A DNA stretch of 64,000 nt. Origin: Octopus sinensis (Eukaryota). This document shows positions 36,380-50,100 of this stretch, piece after piece (position 1 is the first letter of the stretch; each line of letters begins with the position of its first letter). The notes under the pieces were generated by a model. It made no database searches, was not told the origin of the DNA, and saw only the letters and a program-made list of their open reading frames with translations. The stretch spans positions 62,001 through 126,000 of the forward strand of contig NW_021835997.1 of the NCBI RefSeq assembly GCF_006345805.1. Direction: 5' to 3'. Both the position numbers and the translations under genes were made by a program.

Positions 36380-36830
36380 AGACAGTTGTTCTGAATGTCA
36401 AATTCGTTAATCATTGTGAAAAACTGACATTTCTGAGTATTTTGGCAAACTATGAGTCAACTCGCAGCACAACTCGATTGAGGCCGACCATAAACTGAGA
36501 AAAGGGAACGGAATTTCTTAGGAAGGTCAAAATATGAATTTAGATGCCGTCTAATGGCCGATATTCCACACTCTCGAGAGGCACAAGAGACCCGATCTGT
36601 GCCATATAGAGTATGAGAGCCGTCTACTTAAAGAAGAAAATTTTGAAATGTCGATCAGCAGGGTACAATTCAGGATCTAAAGGTCTGTTTTCAAACTATA
36701 CAAAAATGCTAGAAATACTTTTCTTCTCACTATAAGCTTGATGGATCTGAACAGGTCTTGTTTTCCAACAGCCACGTGTATTTTGACAATGACAAACTTG
36801 CGGGTTACAAACGAGGGAAGTGGTATTTGT
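36380..36830 (-). pseudogene. MutS-family (MSH4/MSH5-like) ATPase-domain pseudogene fragment
   Basis: TALILYMAQIGSLVPLESVEY.PLDGI*, SQFMVGLNR and AKILRN...MINEF correspond to MutS domain V motifs. Stops and frameshifts. Confidence 0.7.
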
Positions 36831-37244
36831 TTTTTTCTTGTTAAAGTAGTCTTATATTTAAATACACCGGAGGTACAAAGAACCGAGGAAGCATATGGTT
36901 GGTTAGTTTACTTATAATAGACTGCAATCTCTGTCAGTATCGAACAATCAGGAAGAAATGTCTGTTGTATTCGAATTCATTTTATTAATTCCACTCTATA
37001 TCTCGAATTTGTTTCTGAACAAACTAATATTGAACCTTCCAAATTGTTTAAAAGTTTGTGAAAAGAGTCTATTAAATGTTTGAAGTCAGTGAGAGTAATA
37101 AATAGCAGGATCTTTCTCTAAATACGAGTGTAGTCATACAGTAGATTCAAAGAAGTAACATACGAAGAAAACGAATGAATAATACAGCAATAATAAAAAA
37201 CTTAGCCAAATTTACTAGGCAAACACAAATAATGAGAAAAGTAA

Positions 37245-37500
37245 TTAGGAGTTGAAAGTAGTCCTCTGCAAATAACAAAAATGAGACAACCAGTCCTCGG
37301 ACGACGGGGTTTCTGTTCCTACGCTCAGTCCTTGAACGTACTCGCACGTACTTGGAGTGAATGGCACAGGACACACAATATCGGACGGGGTAGAACACCC
37401 TCGGAATGTGCAGGACTGCAAATACACTCCTCCAGGCACATACCTTGAGAGGTGACTGAAGAGTGAGTTCTGGGAAGGTGACTGTCCTGGTCTATGACTC
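37245..37500 (-). pseudogene. RPS26: 40S ribosomal protein S26, 3' half only
   Basis: IPRVFYPVRYCVSCAIHSKYVRVRSRTERRNR. Introns 37416-37443 and 37266-37290; TAA at 37245-37247. The N-terminal KKRRNNGR/CxxC half is absent. Confidence 0.85.
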
Positions 37501-37502
37501 CG

Positions 37503-38055
37503 TCAAGACAACGAATAAAACAAATAATACCCCAACAAAAAACACAACACAGTCACTATTATGTATAACCAATATTCCACATGTTTGGACTGTTCTGTAT
37601 TCCCCACTCGCAGTCGCCTGTTCTCCATCCGCAGTGCCTCCAGTCGACAATTCACCACATCCAGTTGCCTACTCAATTCCGAGTCCTCAGTCGGGAATGA
37701 GACGGGCACTAACAAACGGGCCACACCAGGCGAGTCCCACTTCTCATCAGTGCTCGACATAAATAGGAGACAGTTTTTTATGCCCGAGTCTACATTCCCT
37801 GGTTTCCACATGACTTGAATATATATAATATGACACCTGACACTGCTATTTGTTGTTGGGGTTGTATTATTCCCTTTGTAGGTTTGATTGTGTAACTTTT
37901 GGGGAGTGTTGTTCTGACTTTGAAGTTTATTGGGGAGTCTGCCAGGCAGGTCAGAGTGATGTGCAATGTTTGTGACTGCTCACAGGATTCTATGTCTGGG
38001 CAAACATTAGGCTTGTACCAGGGAATGCAAGTTTATTGGGCACAACCTGCATCAT
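37503..38055 (-). CDS. VAP-like protein (MSP domain, coiled coil, C-terminal TM)
   Basis: ATG at 38055. Two 23-nt introns (37996-38018, 37814-37836) give MMQVVPNKLAFP|D...INFKVRTTLPKSYTIKPTKGII...VS|VM, then LEALRMENRRLR and a hydrophobic tail. Confidence 0.85.
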
Positions 38056-46864: not shown

Positions 46865-47161
46865 AATTTTCAATAAATACGAGCTTTTTTATCCTGCTAT
46901 TTTAATGTCCTGACATGTTACGAATATGAAGTTGATTGTCATTGATTGTTAATGTAAGATATTTGGGGAGTTGGACTTGGATTGATCTATTGTATCGATT
47001 TTAAATATAATTTGTCGGGCAACATAATTATCATAAACATTGCCCATTATCATAAGAGAATTCTGACATCATATAATGAAGTAATCAGAACTAGGATTGT
47101 TCGCAACTGGCACAATTGAATTATGAATAAAAACTTAACAAAAAAATGCTATAAGAGATAG

Positions 47162-48225
47162 TCAATTTCTGCTATTTTTCTTTTTAATGGATTTGACTAA
47201 TTTTGTAGAATCGACTAGTTTAGTATCCAAATGAGGCAAAGGAACGACATCGTCCTTTGGCGACTCGAACATTTGAGCTCTTCTCTTTTCTTTCTCCACT
47301 TTGTTAAAAGTCTGTCTCTCTCTAACAATTTCCTGCTTCTTCTTTCGTCGAGCGGATTCGCTCATAAAATACTCCCCGCTAATAAGTTGCTCGTCAATCT
47401 ACAAATAGGGAATATAAAACAGACCTTCGATAGTGGCTGTGGGGGAGGAAAAGGAGTGTAGGGTTTCTTTTCCTTCCTCGCCTTCTTTTTCCTTTTCTTC
47501 CCACCAGAACATGTCTTGAAATTTGGAAGAAATCGTTCCCAAGACTCATTGGCCAATTTCTCGTCCTTTTCCAGTTCCTTCCTAATCATAAGACTTTGCC
47601 ATCTTTTTTGGCCAGGAACTACCCTGATGTTATAGATTGGATGAATGTTGTTCATACAATCCACCACAATCTTCTCAGCCTCCACAACTCCCTTCTCGGA
47701 ACCGACCAGAGCCACAGTATTGCCTTGAACAGCCACATAACAGCCTGTCAGCAACTCAATCGCCAGAAAATATATTTTTGAACAAACTTTCAACGTCGAT
47801 CCTTCAGAACCCATCAGTCGTTTTCTCCGCTTTTTAAATCGATCTTTGTTACGAACTAGGGAACCTATTTTGACCACACAGCTCACGACGTCGTCAGACA
47901 GTGTCCGCAAGGCCTACAAATCAAGACAGGGAAGAACATGTTGGAGTTGCACACTCCTGGCAATGTTTTTGATCACGTCCCTAGCCTTGCTGATCACGTA
48001 GGGGTCCCACGTGTTGTCGGTCGTTTTGACTTTCATACTTTCCTCCATTAAATCCAATTCGCAGCCTATTCCCTTGTCATATAATTAGTGCGAATACATA
48101 TTAGCCGAGTTTGGACTCTAGTGATGGCCAACATTCTCTTATGTATTTTTCACGATATCGAGGAAATAAAATTGCAAACGAACTCTCATATAAAAATTTA
48201 TTTGGATTGTCTTTTTTTTAAAATT
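47162..48225 (-). pseudogene. KRR1: KRR1 small-subunit processome component; lacks its own start and has one in-frame TAA
   Basis: DNP...[77 protein letters not shown]. Introns 48073-48097, 47914-47937, 47764-47787, 47596-47622 and 47399-47424. TAA at 48101-48103. Confidence 0.9.
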
Positions 48226-48239
48226 TACACTGTTAAAAT

Positions 48240-50100
48240 TTGGTTTCTCCACTGTCCCGTACATAACCAACGATATGTAATCAACGTGGGATGAATCCCC
48301 ACACGTGTTTGACACAGTTACCAGCCAGTCTCCCGCTGGTTTTTCTTTTCAGAATGTAACCGACAAAAATGCCCATTCGTCAAATTTAGTTCCAACGTCA
48401 GCTTTCCGCGGAAACAGAATTATGGACTCCGTTTGTGATGGGGATTTGACCACCACTTGGAGACATCCACGTCGTCTACTCTCCATTGTCATCACAAATT
48501 GCACATTCTCCAAATAAACAACGTGGTTTTTACTCCCCACACACCCGTCTGTGTGTATTGTGAGTGTTAGCGTATCATTCAAACTAAAATAACTTTAAAA
48601 GGCAACTCAGAATTCAATTGAAGATGCTCTCTGCATTCATGCATGTCCCCAATTCGTGGCCATTTGAGTGCCAGTTGGACAAATCGGGAAGTACTGAGTT
48701 CCCCATACCCATATTTGTGACTGTCTACTCAAATGACTGCAAAAATGACATTTTCGACAAACAGCATTGACAACCCACTCTCCGTCGAAAATAAAGTCAG
48801 TAAGTGTTGACCGAATTGCAATGTGTTGCACGTCCCTCCAACTCAAATCAGGCCTCACTTGAAGCCCCAGAGCCAGAATCCCCGCAGTCATGGGGGCGGA
48901 TGCAGACGTGCCAGAAAACCTGTCAGTACATTTATTCCCCAAATCAGTAGTAGACTAACGGAATAAACACTCTCATTACAATTCCCTCATTCATGTCCCC
49001 GGGAAAGGTAGAAACCAAAATAGCTGAGCACATTTCGAGTTAGTACGATTTTTTACCGTGGATGTTAACACTTCCCACAGCAAGGGTGAATATCTGGTTG
49101 ACATAGCACTCACATGAACAGGAATCCCCAGCAGGACCCCCATTTCCTGATGCCCATACAAATTATGGAGCCTTTCCCGTCTCGTCCATTCTTAATGGCA
49201 GAATGGAATGCTTTCATTGTGAGGTGACCAGGCCCGTCCAACGTCTGTCCGTCATCCGTGGGTCCCCAACTGCTGGAATATATCGAAATATAATTATTTG
49301 CGAAGGATATTCCACCTGCCTCCACTGAATCCTTCACAATAGAAGACAAAACTCAAATTCCTGAAAAATACACAGAAAATAACCTCCAATTTTACTACCA
49401 AATGCAATTCCTACTCCACAATGTTTTCTAGTCCCCACCACAACACCAGCACAGCGTGTCCCAGGACTAAATAACAACAAAAATGCCCGACTTGTTATAA
49501 GTTATCATTGGAAATGGCTCAGGATCCGAATCGTCATCCACGAAGTCGTAGCTTGCCTTTGAATCCTAATAAAATAACTTTAAATACACAAAAACGTAGT
49601 TTGGGAATAAATCGTTCGTTCTTTTCGTTTAAGAAGTCGTTGCCTGTGAGTTAACTTGTCTTTTTTGAGCCGATTTACACTTTCTAGACTCAAACAAGGC
49701 ATAATTCTCAGCATCCCCACATTCTTTATTCAACACTCCCGGATTAAACACCCCACCACAACACAAAACGAAATATTCCCTAAAATAACCATTAGTGGAA
49801 GGCGTTGTCAAAATCTGCGTTGGCGCAGTTGGGAATGTGCTTAGACTCCGTTGTGTTAATGTGCACGAATTTCTAATGTAAGTGAGTTTCCAAAGAATTC
49901 AACAACCACGAAATTTGACGTATTTCTGGACAATATAAGTGGATGAGACTCGAGATTCCAAATTTACACCAAAATTATTCAACATTAATCATTAACAACT
50001 CAGTCCTTAGTATGAGGAGATTTCAATTTCTTATCGGGATTCAATTCGGCTTCTAAAGCTAGTAGAGCACCTTGTTGTATTTCTAATGCGTATTTTCATC
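48240..50100 (-). pseudogene. Furin/kexin-like proprotein convertase (S8 and P domain) pseudogene
   Basis: ASYDFVDDDSDP, GTRCAG (catalytic His changed to Pro at 49463-49465), YSSSWGPTDDG, WASGNGG (frameshifted), FSGTSASAP, WRDVQH, RRG.L...SP, LVMYGT. TAA at 49040-49042 and TGA at 48349-48351. The 5' limit is approximate. Confidence 0.9.

Follow-up and report, generated by a model that had tools for sequence, protein, structure and literature searches.

A stretch of 64,000 nucleotides filed under Octopus sinensis (assembly GCF_006345805.1, contig NW_021835997.1, positions 62,001 to 126,000; hereafter the window) carries a patchwork of fused gene pieces between 36.4 and 51.5 kb. Eight named pieces (a MutS homologue, RPS26, FLII, a GOLD gene, an IGHMBP2-like helicase, Nup98, KRR1 and a proprotein convertase) sit here together with VAP, WDR75 and three unnamed pieces. 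The VAP copy and a POU homeobox open reading frame (ORF) are open, but most of the pieces are dead. We favour, with moderate confidence, an origin by repeated end-joining capture of DNA fragments and later deletion, which would have formed a young, fused, intron-keeping cluster. The DNA itself very probably derives from a dicyemid, a tiny octopus-kidney parasite.

The region from 36150 to 51640 was compared at 80% likeness with four of the six public runs listed (X1, X2, X3 and X5). X1, the best DNA run, consists of DNA contigs, while X2, X3 and X5 were identified as transcripts solely by gaps of intron size. The comparison draws on 40 of 942 differences, 14 of 26 joints, 24 of 348 loose ends and 32 of 892 pieces (8 of 661 for X1). 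It was found that gap totals in the transcripts equal the sums of 22–30-nt introns at window coordinates, in agreement with an initial annotation according to which most copies keep micro-introns. The total is 100 for KRR1 (25 + 24 + 24 + 27; X3 and X5), while the convertase gave 79 (30 + 25 + 23 plus one extra window base), 48, 25 and 23; further totals were 25 for Nup98, 22 for GOLD (X5) and 23 for VAP (X2). The introns are retained, and the intron loss expected of a processed (retro) pseudogene is not seen. The copies instead resemble unprocessed (duplicated) pseudogenes, with introns kept, lesions or truncation (RPS26, GOLD and Nup98 are truncated) and an intact parent elsewhere; the VAP copy is open.

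Transcript contigs differ from the window by 1.0–5.4%, with the exception of VAP in X3 (12%), and the spliced contigs extend beyond the joins. Because they continue past the joins, and because a MutS stop is a sense codon in them, intact, expressed and near-identical copies exist elsewhere, as the initial annotation had expected. Several contigs on the gene pieces have depths of 41–58x and others 124–260x; although depth is not equal to copy number, this suggests that the gene pieces are present in more than one copy.

Most copies had been said to carry stops or frameshifts. This holds for MutS (two stops), the helicase (the anchored gene path has seven lesions), KRR1 (a single stop, with AG missing from two introns), the convertase (stops, one frameshift and one deletion) and, by eye, FLII, but not for RPS26 and GOLD, which like VAP contain neither stop nor frameshift. 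The anchored path leaves out stops placed in false introns (helicase 43440, convertase 49056 and WDR75 51207) that the transcript gap totals exclude. At 36540–36542, X2, X3 and a 43x contig of X1 carry a sense codon in place of the MutS stop, with the remaining 138x of X1 depth unchanged. Since the sense form and a deeper, unchanged DNA form both exist at this position, the lesions are real and intact copies lie elsewhere. Substitutions are transition-rich (1.3–2.1) and lean to A/T in the window (p 0.04–0.06 for X2, X3 and X5, and 0.34 for X1). Two neighbouring genes, a permease of 490 codons and an SNF gene of approximately 590 codons, are free of stops over some 1,080 codons. Both are otherwise open, but one intron of each (near 1520 in the permease and near 61635 in the SNF transporter) would lack GT or AG, possibly reflecting non-canonical splicing or single lesions, and the splice lesions of KRR1 are weakened as evidence on this account.

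Transcripts depart from the window at 37453, 40178, 40350, 41714, 44293/44301, approximately 48229, 48242 and 49615. The initial annotation had described three joins in which an upstream gene abuts the 5'-truncated body of an unrelated same-strand gene with no spacer (VAP>RPS26, Nup98>helicase and convertase>KRR1). Transcripts do leave the window at all three, but VAP keeps approximately 50 nt of 3' untranslated region before RPS26. At this first join, RPS26 transcript identity runs to 37453 and then diverges, and on the side of VAP a 643-nt DNA contig of X1, matched whole, begins at 37451, so that VAP and RPS26 overlap by 3 nt (37451–37453). At the second, helicase transcripts (X2, X5) depart at 44293 and Nup98 (X3) at 44301, placing the join within 44294–44300 with at most 7 unassigned letters. 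A joint from 43438 to 44337 (X1, X2; 27-letter side) links helicase to Nup98 over 898 bp; it may be a deleted fusion derivative or chance, and was not used. At the third, the KRR1 match reaches approximately 48229, the letters 48230–48241 read as the end of a first intron, and X3 has a loose end at 48223. The supposed 5' truncation of KRR1 is therefore slight, the copy being cut in its apparent first intron with the loss of only a few codons. Convertase transcripts (X2, X3) depart at 48242 and 49615, and whole X1 contigs end at both; this gene appears 5'-complete by eye, with an internal deletion at 49615/49616. GOLD contigs (X3, X5) depart at 41714, and an unnamed piece does so in X3 at 40178 and 40350. 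The X1 contigs that end exactly at 37451, 48242 and 49615 would represent de Bruijn branches at which native and fused forms coexist.

The most intricate part of the patchwork is enclosed by an exact 35-bp direct repeat on the forward strand (40092..40126 and 42101..42135; chance expectation 4e-11), with 1,974 bp between the copies (40127–42100). One X2 record matches both places in the window. The first repeat forms the left flank of this cassette and is followed by AT-rich sequence; the second is read as the end of the last helicase exon and closes an open frame running from the last helicase intron. Since the second repeat continues the helicase reading frame, the 35 bp probably represent a target duplication, the cassette having been inserted into an older helicase copy. 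The cassette begins with a 51-nt patch (40127..40177), likely templated filler, with a 10-nt tandem at 40128–40149. This is followed by an internal piece of some transcript, cut at both ends (40178..40350; X3 loose ends of at least 255 nt on each side), and by the 3' part of a gelsolin-repeat gene on the forward strand with micro-introns and one stop, assigned by eye (40351..41383; X2 depth 18–23). A short forward-strand piece (41400..41713, by eye) and a reverse-strand GOLD-domain piece (41714..42100, Pfam 7e-7), which is 5'-truncated, ends two codons short of its stop and has a 22-nt intron, complete the contents. The gelsolin-repeat gene is presumably FLII, an assignment made against known motifs to which Pfam and homology searches added no confirming match, and the short piece we take, likewise by eye, to be F-box-like, with no significant Pfam match. 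There are at least three inner joins (40178, 40350 and 41714). In addition, an 18-mer at 40184–40201, 57 nt within the left cassette end, recurs at 42077–42094, 6 nt within the right end (chance expectation 4e-5), a pattern compatible with template switching or with a single round of copying along a circle.

Divergence is unequal among the pieces in X2 (1.0–4.1%, p 0.004). Nup98 is less diverged than the helicase to which it is fused, with 5/372 versus 37/895 letters differing in X2 (p 0.009) and 11/431 versus 22/447 in X3 (p 0.076). The earlier suggestion that gene-dense DNA was repeatedly copied into this region thus finds support in DNA-level copies with introns and in pieces of different age.

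We propose that DNA breaks in a transposon-rich region were repaired by end joining, whereby short gene-dense DNA pieces, presumably from mostly unlinked donors, would have been pasted in repeatedly and then trimmed by deletion. The cassette, with its four pieces, would have entered through a staggered break in the older helicase copy, leaving the 35-bp duplication, and the short repeats at its ends may stem from template switching. Compatible with this are the 3-nt overlap of VAP and RPS26 as read from contig ends, the filler-like patch at 40127–40177 and an 8-nt filler in another X1 helicase copy. Neither Helitron ends nor terminal inverted repeats were found at module borders, as expected for break-repair insertion by non-homologous end joining (NHEJ) or microhomology-mediated end joining (MMEJ). 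Capture and movement of the fragments by Helitrons or Pack-type DNA transposons is highly improbable, even though same-strand, intron-keeping multi-gene fragments are typical of such elements and the pieces appear multi-copy in X1. Hairpin-plus-CTRR ends number zero within 36–51.6 kb (three in the window; 0–5 in 10 shuffles), no inverted pair among the 25 longest of 122 frames a module, and clear terminal inverted repeats occur only at a separate element (51660–53287). Furthermore, the pieces lie on both strands, and such elements are not known to leave target duplications as long as 35 bp.

Several points weigh against end-joining capture. Heterogeneity of divergence among pieces does not reach significance in X3 (p 0.34) and X5 (p 0.07). 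KRR1 and convertase are equally diverged (p 0.14–0.89), which a single copying event would predict. Paralogs of the helicase exist, so that the compared transcript may not be its parent. The reading of the 35-bp repeat as a target duplication depends on reading-frame continuity, with no contig listed that bridges an empty site (contigs built from 31-mers are interrupted by a 35-bp repeat), and no junction-spanning read or contig was found for any join among the pieces listed. X1 contains 0.56 of the sampled window words and many window letters are in no listed contig; some lesions could therefore be private or errors. This shortfall, together with the extra convertase base that seems absent from an X1 contig (one gap), would also suit a view of the joins and lesions as assembly or library-chimera artefacts. 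We consider this very unlikely, given the two X1 forms at the MutS stop, one of them unrepaired, the X1 contigs that end at three joins, the transition-rich changes and the stop-free permease and SNF genes.

The initial annotation had suggested that pieces of gene-dense DNA were circularised and then opened in the intergenic spacer. On such a model, segments would be excised as circles, opened at another place and reinserted, and each A>B join would mark the closing point of a circle with native order B>A. Dicyemid development is reported to yield extrachromosomal circles (PMC6543705). As predicted by this scheme, VAP is complete, the convertase is 5'-complete by eye and their join partners are 5'-cut; KRR1 and convertase are of one age, and the 18-nt repeat close to either end of the cassette resembles the product of one round of circle copying. 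However, all 14 joints available among the 26 are forward skips, though bridges with 30-letter sides are detectable; broken spacers could mask a backward joint. One circle leaves one join, while the cassette has several. Nup98 is without the 5' part that a spacer-opened circle keeps (a transposon adjoins Nup98, however) and is less diverged than its helicase partner, and no gene was found by eye as two complementary halves at module ends. The dicyemid circles described in PMC6543705 are mostly below 1 kb and are proposed kin of mitochondrial circles. These indirect tests lean against a circle as the general cause, which we regard as possible but rather unlikely. VAP>RPS26 and convertase>KRR1 are compatible with a circle, a deletion or the fusion of unlinked pieces.

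Native order would equal the order seen here if one or two large gene-dense blocks had been duplicated and then collapsed by many deletions. Internal deletions do occur (convertase 49615; an X1 helicase copy minus 471 bp), and a 41x X1 contig joining 50007–50053 to 50229 suggests that convertase and WDR75 are adjacent in the native arrangement. Alleles of the window type are also deeper than those of the transcript type, as for a duplicated block. However, deletion can neither place a cassette between exact 35-bp repeats nor create the 18-mer repeat, and piece ages differ in X2. On balance we judge this scenario unlikely.

The named fragments of the initial annotation were recovered, most of them by Pfam, in a scan that covered 149 of 178 ORFs of at least 42 amino acids. 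The leftmost is a reverse-strand MutS-family ATPase fragment (36424..36630, stops at 36626 and 36542). Its phmmer match is weak (E 0.06), yet 23 of 23 matches are MutS-family; by eye we take it to be MSH4/5-like. An unnamed forward-strand piece with a micro-intron, absent from the initial annotation, follows, identified by eye (36640..36900; X3 contig spliced at 36711); it is presumably ubiquitin-like, judged against known motifs, and gave no Pfam match. The 3' half of RPS26 (37245..37453, reverse strand, Pfam 9e-14) retains two introns without a stop, and X2 has loose ends within it at 37291 and 37417. The complete VAP copy (37451..38093, reverse strand, Pfam MSP 5e-10) has its start at 38070 and stop at 37503–37505, with 0 lesions over 172 codons, and X2 differs from it at 5/519 letters. 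Between modules lie two reverse-transcriptase (RT) relics of non-LTR (long terminal repeat) retrotransposons (38150..39570, RVT_1 E 0.004), of which 39274–39399 matches an RT element at 25329–25454 of the window.

On the other side of the cassette, the reverse-strand IGHMBP2-like helicase copy (42136..44293; Pfam AAA_11 and AAA_12, tblastn) is 5'-truncated and carries stops and frameshifts. Its last intron contains the 3' end and poly(A) of a non-LTR element (42195..42283, reverse strand; alignment to 27300–27470), beside which an X2 transcript departs at 42298. In a helicase copy from X1, 471 bp are replaced by 8 filler letters (42903–43375). Two further decayed IGHMBP2-like relics (18100–19125 and 23808–24292) have approximately 72% identity to the main copy where aligned. 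The Nup98 autopeptidase-domain piece (44301..44754, reverse strand, Pfam 3e-15) is without the FG region and has a 25-nt intron. It is followed by a high-copy DNA-transposon relic (44830..45400; X1 depth 3520; 97% to window positions 1–264) that gave no Pfam match and that we assume, from a single motif, to be Merlin-like. The POU homeobox ORF (46055..46864, forward strand, Pfam) is intact and intronless; its X1 depth is about 850–1030 against 41–58 for the shallowest contigs, a single shallow X2 contig overlaps it in part, and it possibly belongs to an amplified family.

The KRR1 copy (47162..48241, reverse strand, Pfam KH1 and KH2) begins 12 nt upstream of the second exon and has its stop at 48103. 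The convertase catalytic and P domains (48242..49615, reverse strand, Pfam S8 and P-domain) are 3'-cut at 48242 and contain stops and a one-base insertion. The internal deletion separates them from what we take by eye, against known motifs, to be the prodomain (49616..49960, reverse strand; no Pfam match). Upstream of 49615, transcripts have approximately 300 nt that disagree with this prodomain piece. Head to head with the convertase lies the 5' part of WDR75 (50043..51500, forward strand, Pfam 1e-9), absent from the initial annotation, with which the patchwork reaches about 51500. X3 differs from it at 14/259 letters and an X1 contig spans 50043–50682. The 41x X1 contig has other letters in place of 50053–50229, indicating a second form of the head-to-head region. 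The right border is a Tc5/pogo-type DNA transposon (51660–53287) that is nearly complete and has terminal inverted repeats of 30 bp. Further along, 55021–59328 is a 2,156-bp tandem duplication with integrase relics at 99.8% identity, which represents either a recent duplication or an assembly fault.

The window has a GC content of 34.7% and introns of 22–30 nt. Dicyemids, which inhabit octopus kidneys, have a median intron of 27 bp (PMC6543705), and a dicyemid genome has 36.7% GC and 49% repeats (PMC6736024). The POU ORF is 90% identical to P0241, a protein filed in public sources under Octopus sinensis, with the remaining homologues at 44% identity or less among the matches listed. P0241 (a RefSeq entry named Octopus sinensis) is probably dicyemid contamination of that assembly. 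Myxobolid myxozoans likewise have 22–27-nt introns, and the sole genome with a stated GC content in PMC13644364 has 29%. A myxozoan origin was ranked lower, given the 29% GC of H. salminicola against 34.7% for the window and an only close protein filed under octopus. Same-species parents of KRR1, helicase and Nup98 were not found in the protein collection, where the best identity was 59% and one query had 2 matches; a VAP pattern scan of metagenomes gave 307 pattern matches with no relative among them.

The process is of a known kind, break-repair gene movement, and was not found described for dicyemids. In Oryza, gene movement through double-strand break repair by NHEJ or MMEJ (PMC3615480) similarly involves intron-keeping DNA copies without transposon ends, repeat-rich sites and pseudogene decay, and its short or no microhomology may have a counterpart at the joins here. 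The Oryza cases in that source are, however, mostly single insertions from one donor with mapped donors, whereas here about a dozen sub-gene pieces are fused and nested within 15 kb. Changed order relative to the donor is the defining feature of circle-mediated duplication (PMC3420103; bioRxiv 2022.06.22.497135). In cattle KIT and tilapia vasa, described in the same sources, a 3' end is likewise joined to a 5'-cut neighbour, but these duplications span 28–575 kb with proven permuted order and one closing junction, in contrast to 1–3 kb and several joins per module here. Helitron and Pack-TYPE captures similarly hold several intron-keeping gene fragments per unit, whereas no element ends were found here. 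The extrachromosomal circles of dicyemids (Noto et al. 2003 as cited in PMC6543705) occur in what is likely the same animal group and are a possible source of mobile DNA, but they are described as mostly non-coding or mitochondrial, with a median of approximately 700 bp, and reinsertion of nuclear genes does not feature in that description. No literature description of nuclear pseudogene mosaics in dicyemids was found, although article supplements, outside the search, may bear on the question. The main text of PMC6736024 has neither "pseudogene" nor "circular", and the pseudogenes treated in PMC6543705 are mitochondrial.

Dicyemids are cited for their reduced genomes, yet essential genes are still being copied in small fused pieces that are 1–5% diverged. 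Such copies inflate gene counts, yield chimeric gene models and split short-read assemblies. A more speculative and doubtful idea is that developmental rearrangement in dicyemids excises gene-sized pieces and circles that re-enter germ-line chromosomes in concatenated form. If true, programmed somatic excision would feed heritable gene duplication and exon shuffling, and would help to account for the half-repetitive genome of an animal with 30 cells. Should the pieces prove to be permuted, the long-reported DNA circles of dicyemids would gain a heritable role.

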